A stretch of 64,000 bases of DNA, taken from sequence record MK817115.1; one strand, given 5' to 3'. This document shows, piece by piece, positions 1 through 12,602 of this stretch (positions within the stretch are counted from its first letter, which is position 1; the number at the start of each line of letters is the position of its first letter). The notes beneath the pieces are model-generated. The model saw nothing but the letters and a program-made list of their open reading frames with translations. It was not told where the DNA came from and made no database searches. The position numbers were made by a program, and so were the translations under genes. Origin of the DNA: Escherichia phage vB_EcoM_phAPEC6.

Positions 1-195
1 TTGTAAACAAACCAACTTTAGGATGGAATCCCATTTGAATACACAAACAATCTTCATCCTTATATTTCAAGTATATAGCTTTTGACGTTGCTAGTACTTT
101 AGATTTTGGGAAATAAAAATCACCCATCAGCTTCTGACGTTTCCAGTCCTCATATACAACTGGATGCTTAACCTTCTTCAATTGGTGCAGTACTG

Positions 196-579
196 TCATA
201 GTTTTTTCCAGTCCAATGAATCGAAATCGATTTGTTCAGGATTATCAACAGCGACAACTCGTGCATTATGAAGAGTTTCAAAGTAGCCGTTCCACGGTGT
301 ACGTACTGGAATTTTTTCATCTCCAATTTTTACAAAGAAAGAGAATTCACATGACATTGGATCAAACCATTCTTTATGTTTGGCTTCATCGATTATTGTC
401 GCACGTTCGTTACTATATGCATCATCGAGTTTCTTAAAGAATACCCAATGCTCTTTCAAAGACTGTAATGCTACAACTGCCTCATCCTTTGATTCCCATT
501 GAACATCCAATGTATTGGTAACTGAATCTTCAGTTTCAGTGTCCCCTGTAGTGTAATGTACTTCAATGCTGTATTTCAT
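196..579 (-). CDS. hypothetical protein (127 aa)
   Basis: Intact minus-strand ORF abutting the next gene; no motif recognised. Confidence 0.4.
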   Translation of the reverse strand: MKYSIEVHYTTGDTETEDSVTNTLDVQWESKDEAVVALQSLKEHWVFFKKLDDAYSNERATIIDEAKHKEWFDPMSCEFSFFVKIGDEKIPVRTPWNGYFETLHNARVVAVDNPEQIDFDSLDWKKL

Positions 580-1034
580 TAATCATCGCCTTTTAATAAT
601 TTACAAATTTCAATCATATGATAATAACATGTATTCCAAAATTGTCCATTAGTACTTCCAACATCATGCACAGTACTTTGTTGGAAAACATATTCATCGT
701 TGAACATCATTTTAATATCATCAATGTAAAATTCTGGTTTTGAATCATTATTGTATTCAATACTCGTTTCACCATCTGGATCAAGTGAAATTGATGATAT
801 GTCGTGAATTCCTCTCGGATTTGTTGGATAAATTCTCAACGTAAGAGGATAGAAGTCTGGATCGGTTTCATAAGTATATTCGATTATGTAATAACCATCA
901 CCAGTAATTGATTGATATTTAAATGTAGTTTCAATTGAATTTGAGATGTTAAATCCCAGTTTCTTTATCTCATGTAGATGTGATAATATTTTATGTAAAG
1001 ATCCTAAAACATGAATCAAATTATCAATTTTCAT
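579..1034 (-). CDS. small protein, FQxS-block tandem paralog family (151 aa)
   Basis: C-proximal block NDEYVFQQSTVHD shared with eight neighbouring ORFs; N-terminal part diverged. Confidence 0.55.
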   Translation of the reverse strand: MKIDNLIHVLGSLHKILSHLHEIKKLGFNISNSIETTFKYQSITGDGYYIIEYTYETDPDFYPLTLRIYPTNPRGIHDISSISLDPDGETSIEYNNDSKPEFYIDDIKMMFNDEYVFQQSTVHDVGSTNGQFWNTCYYHMIEICKLLKGDD

Positions 1035-1573
1035 TTACGATCCTTTGAAAAGTTCAGTTTAAAAGTTTTACCAAATTCCATTGTAGCTTTATCCAGATTG
1101 TTAATATTTTCTTTCAACATTTCTTGCATCTTCCTAATACTTTCAATCCAGGCTTCTTCTTCGATACGAAGAATTGGTCGCAATCGTTCCTGAATATCGT
1201 TAAAACGTGTATTGAGTTCAACCAATGATTCATATGTGAAATCTTTCATATCGATAATAGTACTTCTTTGAAAGAATTCTTCTTCAGACAAATTACTTAA
1301 AATGATTTTATCACGACCAATAGATAATGTCAATTCATCATCTTTATTTTTTTTAATTACAATACTAACAGGTGTTTTTAATGTAATGCAAATATCATGA
1401 TTATTAAATGTTTCAGTTTGGTTTGACATTCTGAATTGAAGTTTCCCAGATAAAGCATGTACTGGTGATGGTTTCTTTTTACCAGTAATAACATCTTCCC
1501 ATGAATCGAGAATATTATTAATAATTTTAACATAAGGAATTGGCATATATGCACCTATGAAAAATCCACGCAA
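1031..1573 (-). CDS. small protein, FQxS-block tandem paralog family (180 aa)
   Basis: Block SEEEFFQRSTIID followed by predicted helix; start overlaps upstream stop (ATGA). Confidence 0.55.
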   Translation of the reverse strand: MRGFFIGAYMPIPYVKIINNILDSWEDVITGKKKPSPVHALSGKLQFRMSNQTETFNNHDICITLKTPVSIVIKKNKDDELTLSIGRDKIILSNLSEEEFFQRSTIIDMKDFTYESLVELNTRFNDIQERLRPILRIEEEAWIESIRKMQEMLKENINNLDKATMEFGKTFKLNFSKDRK

Positions 1574-1588
1574 TGCGTGGATTTGTAA

Positions 1589-2119
1589 TTATTCAAGTAT
1601 AGTAATTTCAATTAAACGAATTTCGATAAACTCGTTTTCAGTTTCCCATGACGTGCCAAATTTCTTTTCAAGTTCAGATTTCACATCACTTTTAAATTTT
1701 CCCATAGTATTAGGAATAATTTGTTTGGTTAATTTGTCGTAACCACAATAAAACATAGGTTTCTCCCTTCGAGATATTAGCTGAACAAAATCTTTTGGAT
1801 ATGCAGGTATGTTATGCATCACTTCATGAATACACTCAGTACTTGAATCTTGTACTTTGTACATTACATTAAGTTTACCTCTGAAATTTGCGGTCATATC
1901 AACAATAGTTCCTTTACCCGATTTAAGTAAAGTTCCATTCTTTGAATGAGAGCAATAAAATACCTCATCACCAATATTAGGATAATACAAATTAAATTCT
2001 AATTCAGATTTTACAGCCAGCCGTTTGAAACTTTCTGTACGTTTTATATAAGTTTGGTATTTGTTTATGTTCAAAAGAATATCTCTCTTAGTAAATGTGA
2101 TATAACTGGCATAGTCCAT
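1589..2119 (-). CDS. hypothetical protein (176 aa)
   Basis: ORF; 5' end overlaps methyltransferase ORF by 49 nt so true start may be an internal Met. Confidence 0.4.
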   Translation of the reverse strand: MDYASYITFTKRDILLNINKYQTYIKRTESFKRLAVKSELEFNLYYPNIGDEVFYCSHSKNGTLLKSGKGTIVDMTANFRGKLNVMYKVQDSSTECIHEVMHNIPAYPKDFVQLISRREKPMFYCGYDKLTKQIIPNTMGKFKSDVKSELEKKFGTSWETENEFIEIRLIEITILE

Positions 2120-2931
2120 CCATTCCCAAGCATTTTGTATGCTTGTGTCTTACTAGACACTTTAAAGAAATCTTCAGGAACACCCTGTAATTTACAACAT
2201 TCTACTACACTTAAGTGTCTATAGTCAATATTTCTTTTGCCATTCTCTAATAGATATTGACGACTGATCACTGGGTCACGAAACACCAATTGTCGTCTGG
2301 ATTTATTAAAGTACTGGTTACAATCACCACCTTTAAAATAGTTAGCATCTATACAGTACGAAGCGGTTCTGTCAGTGTACCAACCATCTTCAATAATATC
2401 TTGAAGTTTAGGTGCATTGGATAATGCAGGTGGTATAAAAAGCTTATCAGTACTGTACCAGTAATATCTCTGCCTGAAGTGAGGCGTATAATGCTGGGAG
2501 TTTATCAGTACTGGCGTGATTCCTAAAATACTATTAATGTATTCTTTGAAATCTTCCTTCATTTTAACATTTTCAAACAGAAATTTCAAGTTAGGATTGA
2601 GACTTTTGATATGATCAAAAATTTCAACCATTACTAAAAATAACTGCCCACGTATATCATTTAAACCACCCTGTTTACCTGCAACTGACCAGGCTTGGCA
2701 TGGGAAACCACCCATTAATAAATCTATTTTGTCCCACTCAATATCCCATTCTCTCCACTTAGTTACATCACCCAATTGGATAATATCAGGAAAGTTAGAT
2801 TGAGATTCAGCTATTGCGTACTTATCAATTTCGGATGAATAATATTTTTCAACTGGGATACCCGCATCTTGCAATGCCATATATCCCACACTCATTCCAT
2901 TAAAAAGAGAAAGTACTCGGATAGGTTTCAT
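2071..2931 (-). CDS. DNA (cytosine-5)-methyltransferase
   Basis: C5-MTase motifs in order: FNGMSVG (motif I), GFPCQAWS (PCQ, motif IV), ENV (motif VI), RQR (VIII), GNG (X). Confidence 0.85.
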   Translation of the reverse strand: MKPIRVLSLFNGMSVGYMALQDAGIPVEKYYSSEIDKYAIAESQSNFPDIIQLGDVTKWREWDIEWDKIDLLMGGFPCQAWSVAGKQGGLNDIRGQLFLVMVEIFDHIKSLNPNLKFLFENVKMKEDFKEYINSILGITPVLINSQHYTPHFRQRYYWYSTDKLFIPPALSNAPKLQDIIEDGWYTDRTASYCIDANYFKGGDCNQYFNKSRRQLVFRDPVISRQYLLENGKRNIDYRHLSVVECCKLQGVPEDFFKVSSKTQAYKMLGNGWTMPVISHLLREIFF

Positions 2932-2983
2932 ATAAAATCCTTTTTATATTGTTAAGGTACTATAATATATTATAGCATCTTAT

Positions 2984-3274
2984 TTAGAAATCTTCCAAAC
3001 TTTTTTCATCACACCATCGTGATGTACAGATGATTGCAGATGCCAGAATTGAAGCACTTGCACGTCCTCCACCGAGTAAATACTGGCTAATTACGCCAAT
3101 CATATTGAACACTTTATCATACTCGGTTAGTTGTTCAAAACCTTTCTTCCAATGCTGATATTCTTCTTCTGTGACATTAAACTCACCATCAAGTTCCTTT
3201 AAAATCTTTTTAAGCACAGCACTATGTTCACTCATCATCATCTCCATATCGTTCGTCATAAAAATCATCATCAC
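2984..3274 (-). CDS. hypothetical protein (96 aa)
   Basis: ORF only. Confidence 0.35.
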   Translation of the reverse strand: MMMIFMTNDMEMMMSEHSAVLKKILKELDGEFNVTEEEYQHWKKGFEQLTEYDKVFNMIGVISQYLLGGGRASASILASAIICTSRWCDEKSLEDF

Positions 3275-3313
3275 GATCTAATGGTTCTTTTGGCTTTTCA
3301 GACATATATTTCC

Positions 3314-3574
3314 TCACATGGTAAAGGTATTATCACCATCCATATCTTCATCAGTTGCTTCAGCTAATGTCTTGATTGTAAGTAATCCACGCTTCACGTA
3401 CAACATGAAGACCTTTTCATAATTACCAAACATAATCTCAGGTGACATGTAATTCTCTGTTACAATGACGATTGGACGGCCCTGTGAAAGCATACGAAAC
3501 ATAGTACGATATTTGTCAAATGTGCGAAATTCATCCATGTTCATCATGTGGCGTTTACGAACTACTTTAGTCAT
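3314..3574 (-). CDS. hypothetical protein (86 aa)
   Basis: ORF only. Confidence 0.35.
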   Translation of the reverse strand: MTKVVRKRHMMNMDEFRTFDKYRTMFRMLSQGRPIVIVTENYMSPEIMFGNYEKVFMLYVKRGLLTIKTLAEATDEDMDGDNTFTM

Positions 3575-3588
3575 CTTATTACCTTTAG

Positions 3589-4029
3589 TTAATTGAACTC
3601 TACTTCTGGATAATGATTATAGAACATCTCACGAACTGCGTCAAGATGTTCTTGAAATTGTTTTATATCTTCTAATGATGGTGCATCAATAACAGTACTA
3701 AGTTGAAACAACGATTCTTCTGTGTTATATAGTGACATATCAAATGAATTATTGTTGTCATCAGTTATGATATTATCACAAATTTCGTAAGTGTCAATAC
3801 AAACATCATCAAGTGTTGTATTATCATATACAGTGTATACGAATACAAAAATAAAAGAAGAATGTTCTTTACCATAACGCGGTGGGTCATATGTCACATA
3901 GCATTTGTGATCAAATGTATCGAGTTCCATAGACACCACCCCAGCTTCACGATATTCATTAGTTTCACTGGTAAGATCCGGTATTGATGTTATCGAAAGT
4001 AAGTGGAGAAATTTACTTGGATTTAGCAT
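3589..4029 (-). CDS. small protein, FQxS-block tandem paralog family (146 aa)
   Basis: Block TEESLFQLSTVID. Confidence 0.55.
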   Translation of the reverse strand: MLNPSKFLHLLSITSIPDLTSETNEYREAGVVSMELDTFDHKCYVTYDPPRYGKEHSSFIFVFVYTVYDNTTLDDVCIDTYEICDNIITDDNNNSFDMSLYNTEESLFQLSTVIDAPSLEDIKQFQEHLDAVREMFYNHYPEVEFN

Positions 4030-4484
4030 TTCACCACCATTGGATTTTGCGACTGTATATTAAAAAGGGATAATACAAAAGTACTCAATTTTTCGAAACA
4101 ATCTACTAATACATTTAACTCATCATAACTAACACCAATTTCACGAATAAGCGATTGTTGAAAGAATCCTTCTTCGGTTAACGTTAAACTACTAACCTCA
4201 GTTATGTTATAATAACTTTGGGATGTTGTGGTTGATATTAGTTGTATTGAAATCGTATCTGATGTTGTGTTGTACAGATATAAATATTTTGTTTTTCTTT
4301 CCAATGGATCTATACATGAAAGATCGATCATGTCATAGGTTTTTCCAATAAAAATATTACAATCATCTGACAATTCACAACAAATGCGTATATGTTCTTT
4401 CGGGTCATGAACACGTTGTGTGTCAAATTCACATGACATTGCAATTTCAAAATGATTTTTTATTTCGTCAACATTCATCTGCAC
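4023..4484 (-). CDS. small protein, FQxS-block tandem paralog family (153 aa)
   Basis: Block TEEGFFQQSLIRE. Confidence 0.55.
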   Translation of the reverse strand: MQMNVDEIKNHFEIAMSCEFDTQRVHDPKEHIRICCELSDDCNIFIGKTYDMIDLSCIDPLERKTKYLYLYNTTSDTISIQLISTTTSQSYYNITEVSSLTLTEEGFFQQSLIREIGVSYDELNVLVDCFEKLSTFVLSLFNIQSQNPMVVKC

Positions 4485-4852
4485 CCACCATTAATTCTTA
4501 TATTTGTATAGTTTAATGCTTTTTTAATAATACCAATTTCTGTAATTCCTATTACATTTTTCTCAATCAATGACAATTGGAATAGTTCCTCTTCGGAAAT
4601 ATCAATACTGTGGATTCTTGTACAATAATCGTTGAAGTCATATACATATCGTATTGTATAGTCGTTTATAGAAACTGATACAATTGCAATCCCATCATGG
4701 ATGTAAGTTAGTTCATTTGAGTATCTATTAAAAATTAACCTATCTGGTGAACCTATTGGTAGTTGAAATGTATTTCTAGTATCTTGAACAATAACAAAAT
4801 CATCATCTATATTTCTACTCAGAACACCCAAAATATCATATATAGTAGTCAT
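4475..4852 (-). CDS. small protein, FQxS-block tandem paralog family (125 aa)
   Basis: Block SEEELFQLSLIEK. Confidence 0.55.
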   Translation of the reverse strand: MTTIYDILGVLSRNIDDDFVIVQDTRNTFQLPIGSPDRLIFNRYSNELTYIHDGIAIVSVSINDYTIRYVYDFNDYCTRIHSIDISEEELFQLSLIEKNVIGITEIGIIKKALNYTNIRINGGCR

Positions 4853-4853
4853 G

Positions 4854-5258
4854 TTATTCTTTACCTTCAGCAGTTCTGATAATTTTCATAACTTCTCTGG
4901 ATAGTGCGTATATTTTTTTATAGTACTCAAATGTAACTGAACCAAAATCATTAATAGTACTAGCCATGAAGAACGATTCTTCTGTATATAGTTCATTTGA
5001 CAAAGCAACCAGTTCTTGGTGAAATTTTGCGTCCTTCCAATAACGAAATTCAAAAACAAATTGTCCGTCATGACCGACTCTACAACATTCAGAACGATCA
5101 CTGTCTACACAGCTAAACACAATATCCCTTTCAGAGTCGTACCAGATATTTCCAATATTTGTTTCAATAACAGCATAATCAATTTTTTTAGAATTTGGAA
5201 TTAAACCTTTTTTCACCAGCACTAAACTGGTATTATCAATATCTAGTAAACTTACCAT
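4854..5258 (-). CDS. small protein, FQxS-block tandem paralog family (134 aa)
   Basis: Block TEESFFMASTIND (Q replaced by M/A). Confidence 0.5.
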   Translation of the reverse strand: MVSLLDIDNTSLVLVKKGLIPNSKKIDYAVIETNIGNIWYDSERDIVFSCVDSDRSECCRVGHDGQFVFEFRYWKDAKFHQELVALSNELYTEESFFMASTINDFGSVTFEYYKKIYALSREVMKIIRTAEGKE

Positions 5259-5259
5259 A

Positions 5260-5670
5260 TCAATTCCCCATTACTAAAGTGTTTTTAATCTCCAACAATT
5301 CACTATACATATTCTTCAATTGTAATATATCTTCAAAAGTAATACCACCAAGATCATCAACTAATGAACGTTGGAATAAAGATTCACTTGTTTGTAATGT
5401 ATCTAAATCGGTGATTTTTAATAAAGAACTTGGATTAAGTGTTTCGACTAGTAGTATGTTTTTGTATGGTACATATGTGATCTTGATGTTCTTTTTATAA
5501 TTAATCTTATAAAATCGCATAATTGACGATTCATCACTTAGTTGGATAATTGGGTCGTCTTGATCATTAGACCACCATACAGTACTAGTCATATGATTGA
5601 CGTGGTGGTTCAATTCTGATATGTCCAAATCTAAAAAATATTTTAGTTCATTGTGTAAATCTAAACTCAT
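5260..5670 (-). CDS. small protein, FQxS-block tandem paralog family (136 aa)
   Basis: Block TSESLFQRSLVDD. Confidence 0.55.
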   Translation of the reverse strand: MSLDLHNELKYFLDLDISELNHHVNHMTSTVWWSNDQDDPIIQLSDESSIMRFYKINYKKNIKITYVPYKNILLVETLNPSSLLKITDLDTLQTSESLFQRSLVDDLGGITFEDILQLKNMYSELLEIKNTLVMGN

Positions 5671-5725
5671 AAATTTATCCTCAATGCAGCATCATCATGT
5701 ATTGTAGGATAAACCCACAATAATG

Positions 5726-6121
5726 TCAAGATGTGAAATAATTATACCAGTAATATAGTTCTTTTAATTCTTCAGTACTGAACAATACTTCTTCTATTGT
5801 AGATTGTTGAAAGTGATATTCATCATTTAGATACATAGAAATATTACTATATACTTTCCTATTGTATTGACATAAAAAAGAAGTTTTTTGATTAATGTAT
5901 TCAGTAAATGTTAATTTATCTAACTCAATATCGAATGATAATTTAATAATATGACTATTATCATTTACATACATTAGTTTCTTTGAAAAATGATCAATTG
6001 TAATATATTCTTTATGAGAGAACTGAAATATATTATTAAATTTATTACCATTTGTGCTTCTAAATTTTTCAAGGTAATAAGAAAGTGGTTTAATTATTGA
6101 AGTTCCAATATTGTTCTTCAT
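5726..6121 (-). CDS. small protein, FQxS-block tandem paralog family (131 aa)
   Basis: Block NDEYHFQQSTIEE; GAGGA-like RBS upstream. Confidence 0.55.
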   Translation of the reverse strand: MKNNIGTSIIKPLSYYLEKFRSTNGNKFNNIFQFSHKEYITIDHFSKKLMYVNDNSHIIKLSFDIELDKLTFTEYINQKTSFLCQYNRKVYSNISMYLNDEYHFQQSTIEEVLFSTEELKELYYWYNYFTS

Positions 6122-6140
6122 ATATCCTCAATTTTAGATA

Positions 6141-6165
6141 AGAAAAATGCCCCGAAGATCGGGGC
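6141..6165 (-). terminator. intrinsic terminator-like hairpin (GCCCCGA-loop-TCGGGGC) with T-tract on minus strand
   Basis: Perfect 7-bp GC-rich inverted repeat followed on the minus strand by TTTTTCT. Confidence 0.55.
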
Positions 6166-6281
6166 AGTACTAAAATGATTTTGTACCAAAAGGGGAATAA
6201 GAACAAAATGAAAATATAATAACGCATCATTATTATGTAAGGGAGGAAAGTAACATGATATGTTAACCATTTCTGGTATAT

Positions 6282-6833
6282 TTATTTATCATTTAATTCT
6301 TTAAGTTGGGTTTGTATATCTTTAGTTATATTTCGAATTTTCTTAAAGCAATAAACACTATCGTCCAATTCGATTTTAAGTTCATGTGTAAATGCATACA
6401 GAAGTTCAGCAAATACTAAATCTTGACGCATCCAGTTTCCATCTTTATATAAAGTCATTACACAATATGGGCATTCACTATTAGAAGTTTGCTTTCCAAT
6501 AAAAACACTTTGAATTGATTCATGCTTAAAGCCAATAAAACTTTCATTTATTTTTTTAATTTCAGTACTGATATCGAATTTAGCACTGGTGTTGATTGCA
6601 AAAATTTTATTCCCACTTTCATCAGTATTGATATTGAGTTCAATATCACTACCTAGTTTACGTACTGCTAGAGTATAAAGAAGTAATTCATACATGTCGT
6701 AACTTGTTACATTACCATTTGGTGCAATTACATCAACACTAACACCGTGCATTTTTACTTCTGTATTAAATCCATCTTTATCAGAAAGAAAATCAGTGAT
6801 TTGCTTTGTAAGGATTTTAATTTGGTCTATCAT
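6282..6833 (-). CDS. hypothetical protein (183 aa)
   Basis: ORF inside the paralog array but lacking the shared block. Confidence 0.4.
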   Translation of the reverse strand: MIDQIKILTKQITDFLSDKDGFNTEVKMHGVSVDVIAPNGNVTSYDMYELLLYTLAVRKLGSDIELNINTDESGNKIFAINTSAKFDISTEIKKINESFIGFKHESIQSVFIGKQTSNSECPYCVMTLYKDGNWMRQDLVFAELLYAFTHELKIELDDSVYCFKKIRNITKDIQTQLKELNDK

Positions 6834-6850
6834 ATTTCATTTCCTTATGT

Positions 6851-6877
6851 GATAAAAGCCTCCATAATGGAGGCTTT
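6851..6877 (-). terminator. intrinsic terminator-like hairpin (AAAGCCTCC-ATAAT-GGAGGCTTT)
   Basis: 9-bp perfect inverted repeat flanked by A/T runs on both sides; lies between two minus-strand genes. Confidence 0.55.
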
Positions 6878-6886
6878 TGTATTTAC

Positions 6887-7315
6887 TTAGAGAGATTCTT
6901 CGTATTCAGCAACAATCTCAACCATTTCATTAATGAACTTGATGTGAGAATGTGTCACTGTACGGAAGTCGTAAACAAGTGACTGTTGGAAAAATACATC
7001 TTCATCAAGAGAACCATCAAAGTTCAAATCAATGTTTTCATCGTCATTGCTTGGTGCAACTTTAATATTCAGAAGATTTTCATCAACTGCAAGTTTTACA
7101 ACACAACCCAGTGCAATGGCAAGAACATATGCTGGTTTCTTAGCTTTTTCATTACGGAATGGTGCACGTAGAGCACAAAAAGTACTGCTAATCTCATCAT
7201 TTGGTTCTTTGTATTTAACATTGACCATTAGTTCTTCGATTTTGACGCTCTCAATAACACGACCAGTTTCTGGAGCGAAGAAAGAATGTTCACGGATAGT
7301 TTGTTCGATATTCAT
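6887..7315 (-). CDS. small protein, FQxS-block tandem paralog family (142 aa)
   Basis: Block LDEDVFFQQSLVYD. Confidence 0.55.
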   Translation of the reverse strand: MNIEQTIREHSFFAPETGRVIESVKIEELMVNVKYKEPNDEISSTFCALRAPFRNEKAKKPAYVLAIALGCVVKLAVDENLLNIKVAPSNDDENIDLNFDGSLDEDVFFQQSLVYDFRTVTHSHIKFINEMVEIVAEYEESL

Positions 7316-7318
7316 ATA

Positions 7319-7513
7319 TTATTCCTTATTTAGATTGCTAAAAATACGAAGATTGCGGTTTGCTTTAAACTGTTTCAAATCACCAAATCTATCATCAACG
7401 ATGAAAGTTGCTGATTTCTTTGACTGACATATTGTACAAATCAACATACCTTGTATTGTATACTCAGTTGAGCAATTTGTACAGTACTTTTTTTCATAAA
7501 GTTCAGTACTCAT
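7319..7513 (-). CDS. small zinc-ribbon protein (64 aa)
   Basis: Two CxxC pairs (CTNC ... CTIC). Confidence 0.4.
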   Translation of the reverse strand: MSTELYEKKYCTNCSTEYTIQGMLICTICQSKKSATFIVDDRFGDLKQFKANRNLRIFSNLNKE

Positions 7514-7845
7514 AAAACCTTCACATCAGTACGTTTTTCTCTTTGTTCTTTTTTAACCTCATCAGTTCTAGTATCTTCTAATTGTAACACAACTTCTTTT
7601 AGAATGTCAACATCAATTGTTGCTTCTACATATTGATAGTCGTTTACACCAAAAACATACTTTACTGCAACCCATACACGGTTATACCATTTTAAAAAAG
7701 GATTTAAACGCATACTTATCAGACATTGACCAAGTTTATCATCTCCATATTCCTCTGTCAAGTCAAATTGTGCAATGTGAACGCAATGCTCCATTTTATC
7801 GCCACAAGAACAACGTAAAATATACTCTTTACTATCTTCACTCAT
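7510..7845 (-). CDS. hypothetical Cys/His-containing protein (111 aa)
   Basis: CSCG...HCVH cluster near N-terminus. Confidence 0.35.
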   Translation of the reverse strand: MSEDSKEYILRCSCGDKMEHCVHIAQFDLTEEYGDDKLGQCLISMRLNPFLKWYNRVWVAVKYVFGVNDYQYVEATIDVDILKEVVLQLEDTRTDEVKKEQREKRTDVKVL

Positions 7846-8264
7846 ACTGGATAAGCCTTTAAAAATTGTTTAAGAACTCCAAACTTAGATGAATCGTAAT
7901 CGTATTGATAGTTAAGCTCTCGCTTATCATTCATACGATACACCATATGAAAATTTGGATAACCAATTCTAACAGGTTTTTTAGGATTAGCAAGTAAAAT
8001 TGCCCATTCTTTTACAGGAAATACGTTTTCAGACAGCATTTTGATATTTGTTTCAAAATACTTCATGGCTTGCTTTCCGTGCTTGTAATCTTCTTCACTA
8101 ATCTCTTGACAATCAATTCTATGTGTTTCGGTATCTAACACCCATTGTTGATCTTCGGTATATAAATCAATTACATCATCAATAGTATAACTATCAGGTA
8201 AATCATAAAATACCCAATGAGATAAACCAGAACTTACACCAATTCGAATTTTAAAGAACTTCAT
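7842..8264 (-). CDS. hypothetical protein (140 aa)
   Basis: ORF only. Confidence 0.35.
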   Translation of the reverse strand: MKFFKIRIGVSSGLSHWVFYDLPDSYTIDDVIDLYTEDQQWVLDTETHRIDCQEISEEDYKHGKQAMKYFETNIKMLSENVFPVKEWAILLANPKKPVRIGYPNFHMVYRMNDKRELNYQYDYDSSKFGVLKQFLKAYPV

Positions 8265-8422
8265 TCTTTATCACCTTTTACATAATTATAACACACGACA
8301 CAGTGAATTACAAGAAGAATTATTTCCACAATATTAAGAGACAATACATGACTCTGCGGTGTGAAAAGTGCCAATAACAACATTATAGCAGGTATTGTGA
8401 ATATTTTCCAAGTTTTTTTCAT
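8261..8422 (-). CDS. small hydrophobic membrane protein (53 aa, internal start of the 8261..8566 ORF)
   Basis: Starting at the internal Met removes the overlap with 8424..8654; product is two hydrophobic segments. Confidence 0.3.
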   Translation of the reverse strand: MKKTWKIFTIPAIMLLLALFTPQSHVLSLNIVEIILLVIHCVVCYNYVKGDKE

Positions 8423-8423
8423 T

Positions 8424-8654
8424 TTATTCCTTTGTATATGCATATGGTAAAAATAAAACCTCTGCATTAGGAATGCATTGTGCCAATCCTTCAACAATAG
8501 ATTTGTTTTTATTACATTGCCAAACTTTAGTAATTTTATGTCTAAATACTTTTTTATCAACGACAATCCAGTACATGTCCATTTTAACAGTACTGTTATC
8601 AGATGGTGTTAGTAAAGTATCGATGTCATATGTATCAAAGATTTTGTCGTTCAT
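8424..8654 (-). CDS. hypothetical protein (76 aa)
   Basis: ORF in series with neighbours. Confidence 0.35.
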   Translation of the reverse strand: MNDKIFDTYDIDTLLTPSDNSTVKMDMYWIVVDKKVFRHKITKVWQCNKNKSIVEGLAQCIPNAEVLFLPYAYTKE

Positions 8655-8916
8655 ATAATCTCCTAATAAAATATTCTCGATTCTCTCTTATATACCCAGA
8701 TACACAGTTAGTTGTGGCTTGGTTAGTGAATGAAATCTCACTATTGGACACGCCATTTGCATCACACAAAGGACATATTCCCATGTACTTGGGGGTCGGG
8801 TAGGTGTCCAATTTGTATTTTCCATTACATACCATGTACTGCTGTGGCAATACATCTAATATTATTTCATATTCTTCATCAAACACCTTGAAGCATACCC
8901 AACATTTACCCATCAT
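8635..8916 (-). CDS. Cys-rich small protein (93 aa)
   Basis: CWVC...CNG...CPLC pattern suggests a zinc-binding fold. Confidence 0.35.
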   Translation of the reverse strand: MMGKCWVCFKVFDEEYEIILDVLPQQYMVCNGKYKLDTYPTPKYMGICPLCDANGVSNSEISFTNQATTNCVSGYIRENREYFIRRLYERQNL

Positions 8917-9397
8917 AGTTTTCCTTTAACACAGTTCTTATATATTCGAATGTTTTAACAAACCAATCATGTTCGTCGGATACATCTACAACTTTACCAC
9001 CATATACATAGTAATGGTAAAAAGGCAACTTGCTTTTTCTTAATCTTTCGGCTAACTCTGGATTTTGAATTATTTTAGCACAAATAGCATCTTGAATAAT
9101 AGAAATACAATCATCCGTCATTTCAATTCGATCATGCATATATTTGTTAGCGGCTGCTTTTGCTGCTGCACCAGATACTTTTCTAAGGTCATCATGTTTT
9201 TGCCCAGTTAAAAACCAAAAGTAAAATGTTTCAACTGAAGGGAACCAACCATATGGTTCAAGTGTGAAGCTATGCGAAGAAAAGTTAGATAGATCTCTAC
9301 CTAACTTCGTTCTGGCTTTACTATAAATGTTAATATGTCGGTATCCATCATCAGTAGGGTCAATGAAGTTAAATGACTCTTCTGGGAATTCAAACAT
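8906..9397 (-). CDS. NADAR (YbiA-like) domain protein
   Basis: Alignable to YbiA/NADAR signature: INIYS...LSNF...FPSVETFY...AKAAANKY...QNPELAERL. Confidence 0.6.
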   Translation of the reverse strand: MFEFPEESFNFIDPTDDGYRHINIYSKARTKLGRDLSNFSSHSFTLEPYGWFPSVETFYFWFLTGQKHDDLRKVSGAAAKAAANKYMHDRIEMTDDCISIIQDAICAKIIQNPELAERLRKSKLPFYHYYVYGGKVVDVSDEHDWFVKTFEYIRTVLKENYDG

Positions 9398-9399
9398 AA

Positions 9400-9753
9400 T
9401 TATTCTTCTTCTCCTGAAGGTGTTCCACGTAGTTTATCAAAATCAACCCAAATACCATGCTGGTTTTTAAATCGACATTTCTCATAGTACCAACTATAGT
9501 CTGTTTCAACACCTTGTGAAATAGAACGCACACTACAATCATACATATTATATAAATGTTCCCTGACAATATATGTATTAATCAGTACAACGAATAATAC
9601 AATAATACCACAGATTTTAGGATGGTCCATAATCAAGTCAAGTACTGAACTAGTTTCAGAACTATCAATCTTACTTCTACAAATAGCAACAATTTTAAGA
9701 ACAGCGAATGATACCAGTAATGAAATTACAATAACACTTAAATAAATTAGCAT
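9400..9753 (-). CDS. membrane protein (117 aa)
   Basis: N-terminal hydrophobic segments. Confidence 0.4.
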   Translation of the reverse strand: MLIYLSVIVISLLVSFAVLKIVAICRSKIDSSETSSVLDLIMDHPKICGIIVLFVVLINTYIVREHLYNMYDCSVRSISQGVETDYSWYYEKCRFKNQHGIWVDFDKLRGTPSGEEE

Positions 9754-9756
9754 AAA

Positions 9757-10338
9757 TTACACTCCTACACCAAAACGTAAAATAATATTATTAACAAACA
9801 CTAAATCAAAAGGTGACTTTGGTTCAGATACTGAGTACTGAAATGATTCTGCTGCGAAATTTTCTCTATTATACCATGTTTCAGAATTTATTAGCATTTT
9901 TTTATCACCAATCGTCACTGAATGTAATGGAACATTTGAAGAAGAATTTATTGAATATGCATTAAGATTACCGTTTTCATCTAATGTGATACTAAGATAA
10001 TATTTTTTCTCAATATCAGGAATAAGTTCTTTTGTATACGAATAGATTGAATCAACCCATTCATCATGTACATTTTCTGCACCAATCAGGTGTCCGAATG
10101 ATAAATTACGTTTAACTGGCTTTGATCCTGGTCGAGTTAGAATGAATTGTTTTGTTAAGTAAAAATTATTATGTTTTACTTCAATATTAACATTTTTAAA
10201 ATTCACCACTTTATCATATACATTTCGAAAAACTGTTATATCCCAAGTACTAATTTCATCCATAATACTTATCACCAGTTCTTCTAGTTCTTGTATAAAT
10301 GGCAAATCATCTTGATGAAATCTAGTCATGGTTTTCAT
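9757..10338 (-). CDS. hypothetical protein (193 aa); possible diverged FQxS-block relative
   Basis: C-proximal ESFQYSVSE resembles the block of the 579-7315 array. Confidence 0.35.
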   Translation of the reverse strand: MKTMTRFHQDDLPFIQELEELVISIMDEISTWDITVFRNVYDKVVNFKNVNIEVKHNNFYLTKQFILTRPGSKPVKRNLSFGHLIGAENVHDEWVDSIYSYTKELIPDIEKKYYLSITLDENGNLNAYSINSSSNVPLHSVTIGDKKMLINSETWYNRENFAAESFQYSVSEPKSPFDLVFVNNIILRFGVGV

Positions 10339-10921
10339 ATACCTTTTTCAAATTCATAATTTCAAGAATGCTGTATTCTTTATCACCAATCAAATCTTCA
10401 GTGAATGCAGTGGGGTCGGCATCGCTATACAACTTACCATTGATGATAACACAACCATTACTAAGATACAATGCACTCATGATCTGTTGTCCTTCTTTCA
10501 CATTTTGTGCTAGACCTGTATTTGTTACTACAAATCCATTTGTTGCTAATGATGATGTTAGTTCTGACCATTCAACTGATATTAAGTCGCGATAGTCCTT
10601 AGATACTTTTATATTCACAATACAAGCAACTCGTTTAATAGGTGGAGTGCTAATCGTGTACATTTGTGGTTGTTGGTAATTAGAGTTGTATGTTTGTGGT
10701 GTTTTAACAGCAGTTCCTGAATTTTGAGTTGATTTGGTAATTACTGGTTCTACACTGGGGACTGTTGTTCTTAGTGATATAATACGTCCAGTTTCATCCA
10801 ATTTAAGGACTAAACGATGAGTTTCATCCTCAGAGTAATAGGGAAACAAGCCACCGGAATTCATATTTTGAAGCATTTTAATTAATTCATAAGTATTTTT
10901 TAAAAACATAGTACACCCCAT
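10322..10921 (-). CDS. hypothetical protein (199 aa)
   Basis: ORF; terminator hairpin abuts annotated start so true start may be internal. Confidence 0.35.
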   Translation of the reverse strand: MGCTMFLKNTYELIKMLQNMNSGGLFPYYSEDETHRLVLKLDETGRIISLRTTVPSVEPVITKSTQNSGTAVKTPQTYNSNYQQPQMYTISTPPIKRVACIVNIKVSKDYRDLISVEWSELTSSLATNGFVVTNTGLAQNVKEGQQIMSALYLSNGCVIINGKLYSDADPTAFTEDLIGDKEYSILEIMNLKKVYENHD

Positions 10922-10947
10922 AGAAAAGGGGAGTACAAAGTACTCCC
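10922..10947 (-). terminator. intrinsic terminator-like hairpin (GGGAGTAC-loop-GTACTCCC)
   Basis: 8-bp inverted repeat then CTTTTCT on minus strand, just after stop of 10957..11511. Confidence 0.5.
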
Positions 10948-10956
10948 AACATTTAA

Positions 10957-11511
10957 TTATAGTTTAATTGATTCTTGAATACCAGTATCCATTGCTTTCT
11001 TGGTACGTGTATCAGATACTACTGTACAAAGGTGTTCAATATTTTCACTTGGAAACGTATTCGAATCAAGAATTTTGGAATTCCAGAAGCCTTTGCGGAA
11101 CTTAGCATAATCAGTACACTGGTCAATTTTCATTTTCTGAAGATTGTTGAACTTTGTACGTCCTGTTTCAATTGTCACCATCAATTCCTGATAAATTTTA
11201 GGATCAAGATTTGGAACCTGTTGTTGAATCTGTGACATTACAAACTTCTGGTCAACACCTTCACGCCCTTTAAAGTATGACTCAATCGTTTCTTTCAACG
11301 CATTTTTGTACTTATCTGCTACTTGAACCTTATCTTGAATAGTAAGAGTATAATTGCTAAGTTGACTTTCAGATGCATCATAGTACTTTTTAATGTTTCC
11401 TTCAAACTCAACTGCACGATCATGTGCACCAACATACATACTAATAGAACCAAACACCATTAGTACAATAACTACCAAAATACCAATTAACGCAAGGAGT
11501 TTACCATTCAT
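10957..11511 (-). CDS. LemA-like membrane protein
   Basis: N-terminal TM helix then helical domain with LemA-like pattern (ETGRTKFNN...YAKFRKGFW). Confidence 0.45.
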   Translation of the reverse strand: MNGKLLALIGILVVIVLMVFGSISMYVGAHDRAVEFEGNIKKYYDASESQLSNYTLTIQDKVQVADKYKNALKETIESYFKGREGVDQKFVMSQIQQQVPNLDPKIYQELMVTIETGRTKFNNLQKMKIDQCTDYAKFRKGFWNSKILDSNTFPSENIEHLCTVVSDTRTKKAMDTGIQESIKL

Positions 11512-12602
11512 AAATCGTTATCCCTCATATAAAGGCCAATGAAAATAGACAGAATCAACAAAACAATGGAAGCACCGATAAGAACATCTTTTCTAGGTTC
11601 CATTTTTACTGACAAGTACTCAAACTCTTTATTAGAGAGTCTCTCAAACTGTGTGTCAATATTATGTACTTCTTTAACTAGTAAGTCAAGAGTTAATTTT
11701 TCATTTAATGCATCAATACGCATCTTTGCATGTAACTCTTCATTCTTCATTCCTTGTGCAAATGATGTACTGTAAAATTTGACAACGTTACCATCATTGT
11801 CAATACCAAAGAACATAATAACATCATTCTTCTTACCACCACGCCACGATGCAAGGGTAGCATCAACAAAATCCACATCTTTGTAATCATAAACTAGTAC
11901 TTGGATGTTTACCTGCTTTCGTGCACCCATCGTTTTTAGCTCATTACGAAGGTATTCATCGTAACCATCAACGTTGTAATTTGTAGTGTTAATTACGTGA
12001 TGTGTTTTGTAATAATCAACTACACTTGGGTATTCTGGAATAGTACTAAGATACTTTTCATCATACATGTTGTGTAGTTCTTCAGGACTAAACAATGAGT
12101 TCTTATCAGCAAATAGATAGTTGATATATGAACTCTCTGCGGCGGCATAGTCACCAATCATAACTTGCTGCCAACGTGGTGGTGTCATTGTACCTTGACG
12201 GTTCACACGTTCAATCTCAAACTCACCTACTGTACTTTTCACATACCAATCAACTTCATATGAGTAATCAAAAACCTTATATGATTCACACTCACGATGT
12301 GATTTACCTTTACTATCATATCGCGTATGGCACTTCTCATGCCATGTATAGTGCTTACATGAACTAGATTGTGTGCAATATTCTTTGTGGCTGTATTTTG
12401 AAGTTACTTGACCATTCAGAATCTCAACATCATAAAGCTGGCTATAGTTGATTGCGTATGAAATACCAAGAACAAGAGCCGCACCAACCAGACAACAACC
12501 AATATGAATCAATAGTTCTTTAGTACTGATATGCTTATCGTACATGTATTTCATAACGAATACAACGATAAGAGCAGGTATTAACAGAATAATGAAATTC
12601 AT
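11508..12602 (-). CDS. membrane protein with possible TPM-like domain (364 aa)
   Basis: N- and C-terminal TM segments; Cys/His cluster; C-terminal region resembles TPM fold pattern; overlaps LemA-like gene by 4 nt. Confidence 0.35.
   Translation of the reverse strand: MNFIILLIPALIVVFVMKYMYDKHISTKELLIHIGCCLVGAALVLGISYAINYSQLYDVEILNGQVTSKYSHKEYCTQSSSCKHYTWHEKCHTRYDSKGKSHRECESYKVFDYSYEVDWYVKSTVGEFEIERVNRQGTMTPPRWQQVMIGDYAAAESSYINYLFADKNSLFSPEELHNMYDEKYLSTIPEYPSVVDYYKTHHVINTTNYNVDGYDEYLRNELKTMGARKQVNIQVLVYDYKDVDFVDATLASWRGGKKNDVIMFFGIDNDGNVVKFYSTSFAQGMKNEELHAKMRIDALNEKLTLDLLVKEVHNIDTQFERLSNKEFEYLSVKMEPRKDVLIGASIVLLILSIFIGLYMRDNDL

Follow-up and report, generated by a model that had tools for sequence, protein, structure and literature searches.

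A large family of diverged small paralogs sharing one short conserved block in jumbo phages related to 121Q, RaK2 and CBB

Introduction

Lineage-specific families of tens of diverged paralogs in co-oriented arrays are known from several large viruses, including the MGF360/505 genes of African swine fever virus (ASFV), the poxvirus ANK/PRANC genes and a zinc ribbon of Bacillus phage G, the roughly 35 copies of which Iyer et al. called "unprecedented" (PMC7824862). Each of these families is restricted to one clade, combines a variable body with a short conserved element and is presumed to have a role in host interaction. Here we analyze a 64,000-nucleotide (nt) stretch of the genome of Escherichia phage vB_EcoM_phAPEC6 (MK817115.1; the whole stretch is called the window below), in which nine minus-strand open reading frames (ORFs) between positions 579 and 7315 belong to a family that resembles the viral families in all of these respects but is unrelated to them in sequence and fold. 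A diverged multigene family in a large virus is thus a familiar kind of thing, while the family itself and, as judged from structure prediction, its fold appear to be new.

Two other types of locus are similar in part. The immunity gene arrays of colicins and polymorphic toxins (Im9, PF01320; SUKH) also consist of small, acidic, diverged tandem paralogs, but the colicin/pyocin DNase immunity proteins (PF01320) are four-helix bundles of about 85 amino acids (aa), in contrast to the sheet plus helices predicted here, and our family has neither adjacent toxin genes nor a Pfam match. The internal protein (IP) loci of T4-type phages are likewise found in T4-related phages and encode rapidly varying small proteins with a short conserved segment. 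IPs are packaged and have a conserved N-terminal capsid-targeting peptide, which the prohead protease cleaves off. The conserved segment of our family is instead a predicted internal helix at 0.5 to 0.76 of the protein length, and the members have not been found in virions.

That the relevant phages contain many paralogs has been noted before: about 10% of the RaK2 gene products were reported to be paralogs (PMC3622015), and the CBB paper lists 22 paralogous ORFs. The family, its motif and its fold are not described in the RaK2 paper, the CBB paper or the jumbo-phage surveys consulted, and our literature searches returned general remarks on paralogs only.

Results

Nine paralogs share a block that is conserved at the protein level. 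The nine ORFs were proposed in a sequence-only reading of the window. All nine were confirmed, and each carries a block with the consensus [TSDN]-E-E-x-[FYL]-F-Q-x-S-[TL]-[IV]-x-[DE] at about 0.5 to 0.76 of the protein length (Table 1). The earlier pattern had been given as an approximation, which is fair, but most copies deviate from it at one position, and the second F and the S are the only positions without variation in the nine copies. The starts of two members (1031-1546 and 4023-4478) were moved to the ATGs annotated in phage 121Q; for the former this is the ATG of 121Q gene 93, the mechanical ORF extending to a TTG at 1573.

Pairwise BLAST among ten ORFs gave only short and weak matches centered on the block, and family membership was therefore tested with profiles. 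When a profile of eight members was searched against all 540 six-frame ORFs of the window, the left-out ninth member always ranked first among the non-training sequences, with expectation values (E) of 4.3e-4 to 4.7e-8, compared to 0.17 to 0.67 for the best non-member ORF. Some of these alignments reached well into the N-terminal part, such as profile positions 25 to 125 for 4023-4484. Identical residues are encoded by different codons in 43% of cases overall, and four copies use AGT for the invariant Ser while the other five use TCN, indicating that selection acts on the protein and not on the DNA. A nucleotide-level repeat or recombination signal as the source of the block was rejected for the same reason. 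The recovery of nine out of nine members together with the mixed codons shows that the block is not a product of chance or composition, and the proposal that the ORFs are paralogs that arose by local duplication is supported.

Both halves of the proteins are under purifying selection. Compared to phage EC.P1, which is 83% identical, the ratio of nonsynonymous to synonymous substitution rates (dN/dS) was below 1 for all nine genes (0.08 to 0.52). Upstream of the block, the N-terminal part had a dN/dS of 0.28, and the block together with the helix after it had one of 0.18. The fastest-evolving copy of the nine was 4023-4478, with 48% aa identity to EC.P1. Positional orthologs of 6887-7315 were found in RaK2 (ORF184, 48% identity), CBB (CBB_371), Munch (Munch_377) and Hallingskeid (CDS0295), in each case immediately downstream of one and the same virion-protein gene, so the duplications predate these genera. 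The fast diversification that had been proposed for the array is not supported, since the duplications are old, with positional orthologs in the Alcyoneusvirus, Mimasvirus, Munch and Hallingskeid lineages, and both halves are constrained.

A few members have an extra basic, helix-prone C-terminal tail (for example, ...EEEAWIESIRKMQEMLKENINNLDKATMEFGKTFKLNFSKDRK) that raises the isoelectric point (pI) to about 8 to 9.7. These are 1031-1546 in the window (residues ~130 to 171) and the copies at 11779-12267 of the 121Q locus (L001) and 12121-12600 of the RaK2 locus (L002), and they may be a sub-type with a different partner.

The members are predicted to form a single domain. A structure model of 6887-7315 was built from an alignment of 36 orthologs with 16 to 91% identity and had a mean predicted local distance difference test score (pLDDT) of 92 and a predicted template modeling score (pTM) of 0.87. 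It contains a helix at residues 3-8, strands at 20-26, 30-36, 44-49, 63-68, 71-76, 81-86 and 95-100, and helices at 105-114 and 122-141. An alignment of mixed paralogs gave a poor model (pLDDT of 48) that still had confident C-terminal helices, and a low-confidence model of 4023-4478 has the same order of one helix, seven strands and two helices. On these models, each member would be one alpha/beta domain in which a short N-terminal helix precedes an antiparallel sheet of seven strands, with two further helices at the C-terminus lying across one face of the sheet. Hydrophobic and polar residues alternate along the strands, and we infer that one sheet face is covered by the helices and the other is exposed. 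In the model, the block (D104-E-D-V-F-F-Q-Q-S-L-V-Y-D116) makes up the first C-terminal helix from its N-cap through the acidic first turn into the body, and a second conserved patch, (G)-x-[TS]-[FY]-[ED], begins the last helix. The proteins had been described as two modules, with the block as a possible docking peptide. In the confident model, the C-terminal helices instead lie packed against the N-terminal sheet and form one domain with it, and the position of the block as a helix start inside the fold argues against a linear peptide.

No conserved Cys, His, Lys or Arg was present in the family alignments, and there was no enzyme signature, the conserved residues being limited to E, F, Q, S and D of the block. 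E-x-x-[YF]-F-Q resembles the cleavage site of the tobacco etch virus (TEV) and 3C-like proteases, a reading that we rejected in view of the helical segment and the shift of the Ser by one residue. A TEV-like site (E-x-x-Y-x-Q-S/G) is an accessible extended peptide, while residues 101-120 are helical in the model at a mean pLDDT of 92 to 93. The family profile also matches vector-derived TEV-site tags (GTENLYFQSM) in PDB entries such as 2j8q_A. This is a short-motif artefact and a trap for profile searches with this motif.

A Foldseek search of the model against the PDB gave nothing at E<=1e-3, and a fold search of predicted viral structures matched only orthologs and paralogs from RaK2, CBB and GAP32. 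The model does have the topology of p32 (a helix, seven antiparallel strands and two C-terminal helices), but a close structural superposition well above background was not obtained, none of the 36 members matched PF02330 (MAM33/p32) at E<=0.1, and p32/Mam33 was not listed among the PDB sequence matches of two family profiles. We regard this as a topological resemblance and not as membership. The predicted fold appears to have no close solved relative.

The family matches no characterized family. The view that the block belongs to no known family was upheld by sequence searches of Pfam, NCBIfam, PADLOC, PHROGs and the PDB and by the fold searches, none of which gave an identity. No Pfam, NCBIfam or PADLOC match was common to more than one of the 36 members, and the PADLOC defense models gave a match (E of 0.0045 to 0.029, to a candidate model) for one member only. 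SUKH/SMI1-KNR4 and other curated immunity families were not consistently found among the 36 members, the weak matches each being to a single member, and PF01320 (colicin/pyocin DNase immunity) matched none. In PHROGs, each of the nine proteins is a full-length match (E of 1e-71 to 1e-117) of its own group of unknown function (21500, 38573, 30548, 30841, 36084, 24510, 24941, 33313 and 23322). Weak cross-matches link these nine groups, but the database itself splits the family into many unlinked small groups without a function or a common name. Nothing significant was found among PDB sequences with the family profiles. The top match was helix I-II of the colicin E9 immunity protein Im9 (3gjn_A: DYTEAEFLQLVTTICD...EEELDKL; E of 0.5, 13.7 bits, 42 columns), which locally resembles the block and the following helix, and the second was a TEV-site purification tag (2j8q_A). 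The Im9 resemblance was rejected as non-significant.

The nine ORFs are one corner of a much larger family. The 48-kb locus of 121Q contains 18 members (genes 80, 83-88, 93, 94, 96, 112, 128, 130, 141, 142 and 146-148) interspersed with transfer RNA (tRNA) genes. For a whole-genome count, we searched the unannotated 352-kb Asteriusvirus genome OR844650.1 with a profile made from first-array members of 121Q and RaK2 only. It found 44 family ORFs at E<1e-3 and 55 at E<0.01, and after iteration to convergence it found 65. These ORFs all lie on the same strand, they encode 103 to 219 aa, and nearly all have the block at 0.5 to 0.78 of their length. About 20 of the genes are located at 28-49 kb and about 40 at 265-295 kb, with five scattered copies. 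The second array in 121Q (genes ~342-408) had 33 matches with the non-iterated profile and 39 with the iterated one. Reciprocal profiles recovered 14 of the 20 and 19 of the 40 members of the other array, and the alignment between the two arrays is limited to a 20-column block (hhalign probability of 95%, E of 4e-8); from this sequence match, the second array likely has the same fold. The paralogy seen in the array of nine is thus real, but its scale was understated, as the family has about 55 to 65 copies per genome, or roughly a tenth of the genes.

Immediately upstream of the second array is another tandem family, unrelated to the first (L014, 188-6195; 156.2-162.2 kb of 121Q, genes 321-346). 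It consists of 24 consecutive genes of ~50 to 90 aa, all annotated as hypothetical, of which 22 match each other at E<1e-3, with a motif resembling [FL]-[ILM]-G-T-[DNQ]-Y-Q-E.

A member at the window edge and a proposed tenth copy. A further member is cut off by the left edge of the window at 2-199. Its translation corresponds to the start of 121Q gene 96 (MTVLHQLKKVKHPVVYEDWKRQKLMGDFYFPKSKVLA), the block-bearing C-terminus lying beyond the edge, and the fragment had an E of 4e-4 with a 31-sequence profile. Full-length 121Q gene 96 had an E of 2.7e-25 against the same profile, which contains it, and 0.055 against the independent nine-member profile. The ORF at 9757-10338, which had been suggested as a possible tenth copy, could not be demonstrated to be a member: unlike the nine ORFs, it was not recognized by a profile from which it was excluded (Table 1), and it was not recruited into the converged genome-wide profile. 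It has orthologs in RaK2 (ORF177), Munch (gene 369) and Hallingskeid. The ortholog group gave a borderline alignment to the block (hhalign probability of 50%, E of 1.6e-4, 30 columns around E-x-x-F-Q-x-S), and the Munch ortholog had an E of 2.5e-4 with the family profile. At most, 9757-10338 may be a very remote relative that has only the block in common with the family.

The family is specific to one clade of jumbo phages. The window comes from an Asteriusvirus jumbo coliphage, and its first 12 kb is 98 to 99.8% identical to the Asteriusvirus phages SP27, UB, PBECO4 and 121Q (~350 kb). In other genera, we found 13 members in a syntenic 45 kb of RaK2 (Alcyoneusvirus), at least 5 in 41 kb of CBB (Mimasvirus), 17 in 40 kb of Erwinia phage Hallingskeid and 10 in 40 kb of Salmonella phage Munch, one of the last being the ortholog of 9757-10338. 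At least 11 members were present in 20 kb of a Logan metagenome contig (L013) and at least 6 in 20 kb of a 174-kb IMG/VR contig (L017). A HMMER search of 1.84 billion representative proteins gave 41 matches at E<=1e-3, all of 62 to 171 aa and all with the block, the ten weakest being metagenome proteins, and the block pattern was found in 38 stretches among 2.9 million IMG/VR contigs. A word-indexed protein search returned close orthologs only, 25 with a 9-sequence profile and 12 with a 36-sequence profile, the diffuse larger profile performing worse than the narrow one. An insensitive tblastn search with a 41-aa consensus gave 10 records, all from the RaK2 clade. The family is thus a hallmark of the RaK2/121Q/CBB clade of T4-related jumbo phages, where tens of copies per genome are found in dense arrays of one orientation, and it is essentially absent elsewhere.

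Copy content differs between the genera. The arrays adjoin tRNA genes, and those of RaK2, CBB and Munch also contain an archaeal/eukaryotic-type peptidyl-tRNA hydrolase (Pth2), which is found within the array in RaK2 (ORF188; L002, 22934-23347), CBB (L003, 22945-23373) and Munch (two entries; L005, 23719-24558 and 26357-26803). No Pth2 is annotated among the corresponding 121Q genes 80-96, so the content of the array turns over between genera. When positions 1-12000 of the window were compared to Salmonella phages SD-1_S14, SD-2_S15 and SD-6_S16 and E. coli phages JNE01 and G17, deletions and replacements within the array were seen. Close relatives cover 90 to 98% of this part in 2 to 5 pieces, and JNE01 covers just 46%. 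They include a truncated copy of 120 aa (P0009), and the G17 version of 6887-7315 is 579 nt and not 426 nt. The array is thus an indel hotspot even within the genus.

Properties and predicted expression of the members. The members are mostly acidic, with a median pI of 4.69 and a median net charge of -9, compared to a pI of 5.37 for the other ORFs of the window. Inspection of the sequences, made without a predictor, revealed no obvious long hydrophobic segments. No member in the 121Q, CBB or Hallingskeid loci is annotated as a virion structural protein, though neighboring genes are. In the CBB supplementary table, CBB_370 is positive by mass spectrometry (MS), in contrast to three family members, the adjacent CBB_371 as well as CBB_391 and CBB_398. 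The latter two and about CBB_451 are within CBB_390-546, and CBB_371 is nearby. The CBB authors consider CBB_390-546 a putative early, host-takeover region, with 11 of the 18 RpoD-like promoters (PMC5259590). A putative promoter in our window lies in the 55-nt gap upstream of 5260-5670 (Table 1), and no T4-type late promoter motif (TATAAATA) was present on the coding strand of the array.

Gene setting. The window is AT-rich, with a G+C content of 31 to 36% throughout, and in its first 12 kb nearly all genes are on the minus strand. As had been noted, the array is interrupted by a C5-methyltransferase gene, which is not a family member; Pfam bore out this assignment (Table 1), and the gene is annotated as a DNA methyltransferase in 121Q, RaK2 and CBB. 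Neighboring array genes often overlap by 1 to 10 nt in an operon-like manner. Start/stop overlaps of 1 to 7 nt between successive genes at 1031-1034, 4023-4029, 4475-4478, 7510-7513 and 7842-7845 suggest translational coupling within polycistronic units. Between the best-conserved family member (6887-7315) and a virion structural protein gene (7510-7845; 121Q gene 78) lies a minus-strand gene for a 64-aa protein (7319-7513) with two CxxC pairs (C11-x2-C14 and C26-x2-C29) that is probably a zinc ribbon. A 50-aa minus-strand ORF at 6118-6270, annotated as gene 82 in 121Q, contains the hairpin at 6166-6148, lies in an untranslated gap between two genes and is probably not a gene.

Table 1. Positions of family members and other features in the window
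Position	Strand	Feature	Evidence or remark
579..1034	-	Family member, 151 aa, block NDEYVFQQSTVHD	Leave-one-out E 3.1e-5; dN/dS 0.26 vs EC.P1
1031..1546	-	Family member, 171 aa, block SEEEFFQRSTIID followed by basic C-terminal extension	Leave-one-out E 5.9e-7; pI 7.8
3589..4029	-	Family member, 146 aa, block TEESLFQLSTVID, net charge -21	Leave-one-out E 6.6e-5
4023..4478	-	Family member, 151 aa, block TEEGFFQQSLIRE	Leave-one-out E 3.9e-6; ORF extends to GTG at 4484
4475..4852	-	Family member, 125 aa, block SEEELFQLSLIEK	Leave-one-out E 4.3e-4
4854..5258	-	Family member, 134 aa, block TEESFFMASTIND, Gln -> Met	Leave-one-out E 1.5e-4
5260..5670	-	Family member, 136 aa, block TSESLFQRSLVDD	Leave-one-out E 4.7e-8
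5726..6121	-	Family member, 131 aa, block NDEYHFQQSTIEE	Leave-one-out E 9.7e-6
6887..7315	-	Family member, 142 aa, block DEDVFFQQSLVYD, best-conserved copy, modeled representative	Leave-one-out E 3.1e-5; dN/dS 0.08
2..199	-	Further family member, first 66 codons, homolog of 121Q gene 96 (147 aa)	Translation MTVLHQLKKVKHPVVYEDW...
9757..10338	-	Proposed tenth copy, 193 aa, AAESFQYSVSEP	Family profile E 6.2
2071..2931	-	C5 cytosine DNA methyltransferase, array interruption, not a family member	PF00145, E 7.5e-38
5701..5729	-	Putative near-consensus sigma-70-type promoter (TTGACA, 17 nt, TACAAT)	Consensus match only
6148..6166	-	Terminator-like hairpin GCCCCGATCTTCGGGGC followed by T-run	27 nt upstream of the start of 5726-6121
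6852..6880	-	Terminator-like hairpin GCCTCC-ATTAT-GGAGGC followed by TTTTAT	Directly after the stop of 6887-7315

Discussion

A host-directed role of the array is plausible by analogy with the multigene families of other large viruses, and our preferred reading, to which we would give a probability of roughly 40%, is that the members are an early cytoplasmic library of binding proteins aimed at host factors. The members would be soluble, mostly acidic products that are not part of the virion and are expressed early from host-type promoters. The scaffold would be common to the paralogs, its solvent-exposed sheet surface would differ from one to the next, and each paralog would bind, and probably inhibit or redirect, a different host protein as part of host takeover or counter-defense. 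We read the block, on the basis of the model, as a structural keystone that holds the helices on the sheet, and, if so, this would account for its persistence in proteins whose strands have become nearly unalignable.

Several observations weigh against this reading. The function is assigned by analogy, and no positive selection was detected, even the N-terminal sheet part having a dN/dS of 0.28. The low dN/dS of 6887-7315 (0.08) and its orthologs across genera are more like those of a core-function gene than of a gene in an arms race. Not all members are acidic, with pI values of up to 9.65, and promoter-like sites are not enriched across positions 1-12000 (79, compared to 70.8 +/- 8.6 in shuffled sequences). 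The fold of the second array is assumed, as only the 20-column block aligns across the arrays, and the invariant polar Q and S would be unusual for a purely structural helix.

The strong constraint and the cross-genus orthology of some members would fit with housekeeping, in which the members form acidic p32/Mam33-like rings or hetero-oligomers that serve phage replication, transcription, translation or assembly. The location of 6887-7315 beside a virion protein gene, and of the arrays beside tRNA genes and, in RaK2, CBB and Munch, Pth2, is in line with such a role. We nevertheless find it doubtful, since neither Foldseek at E<=1e-3 nor sequence and profile comparison with PF02330 links the family to p32, the copy content varies between genera, and sixty diverged copies are hard to square with one role. 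The polar residues of the block can also be read as a contact surface. The block and the next helix could dock on one hub, such as a host protease, a chaperone, RNA polymerase or a phage machine, while the variable sheet picks different substrates, as in the F-box or poxvirus ANK/PRANC families. Viral adaptor multigene families have a high copy number and are organized in arrays, as is the case here, and it speaks for an adaptor role that a short C-proximal element with invariant polar E, Q, S and D is kept across ~60 otherwise unalignable paralogs and is the sole conservation between the two arrays. However, the confident model shows the block as a packed helix within a compact domain and not as a disordered motif. 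A helix N-cap with acidic first-turn residues typically reads T/S/D/N-E-E-x-hydrophobic, which is the pattern of the block, and its aromatic pair and small Ser are on one helical face, as expected for packing on the sheet. As no candidate hub was found either, we consider an adaptor role unlikely. In its most far-reaching form, which we think distinctly unlikely, the family would be the phage counterpart of the adaptor families of eukaryotic viruses, with the invariant helix (E..FFQ.S..D) and the helix after it docking every paralog on one host or phage machine and ~60 different sheet surfaces delivering different host proteins to it. If this were true, roughly a tenth of the genome would be a programmable kit for remodeling the host proteome.

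A special case of the binding-protein reading is that the members are immunity-protein-like inhibitors of toxin or nuclease effectors from abortive-infection, toxin-antitoxin or colicin/contact-dependent inhibition (CDI)-type systems, in the manner of bacterial orphan immunity gene arrays. The proteins are small, acidic, tandemly arrayed and diverged, and their best PDB profile match was to Im9. Yet that match was not significant, and the TEV-site tag in second place illustrates that so short a block puts few constraints on searches of this kind. The folds differ as well, a four-helix bundle in Im proteins and a seven-strand sheet in the family model, and the absence of PF01320 or SUKH matches in all 36 members further makes this version quite improbable. 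Packaged and injected proteins comparable to the hyperplastic IP loci would suit T4-related phages with diversified small proteins that share one short conserved element, but this element is C-proximal inside a folded domain and not an N-terminal cleavable targeting sequence, and no member was annotated or MS-detected as virion-associated in the 121Q, CBB and Hallingskeid loci examined, which makes packaging highly improbable. That the block is a compositional or chance artefact among unrelated ORFs might be suspected from the AT-rich genome and the short, weak BLAST matches. The leave-one-out profiles, the codon variation at conserved residues and the exhaustive database search, which gave only small proteins with the block, have already refuted it, and the reciprocal profiles between the arrays also speak against it, leaving it next to no probability.

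In a whole clade of 350-kb phages, which comprises Asteriusvirus, Alcyoneusvirus, Mimasvirus and relatives and infects E. coli, Klebsiella, Salmonella, Cronobacter, Pectobacterium and Erwinia, about every tenth gene belongs to this unrecognized family. With 44 to 65 copies compared to the ~35 zinc ribbons of phage G (PMC7824862), this is the largest paralog expansion that we found reported for a phage. The databases currently scatter the family over dozens of unrelated "hypothetical proteins," and its recognition turns much of the "dark matter" in their sequences into a single problem. The ~60 natural variants of one scaffold are a panel for screens for host targets or inhibition of defense. 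Since phages of this clade are under development for therapy against E. coli and Klebsiella, the function of a tenth of their genes is also of practical value.

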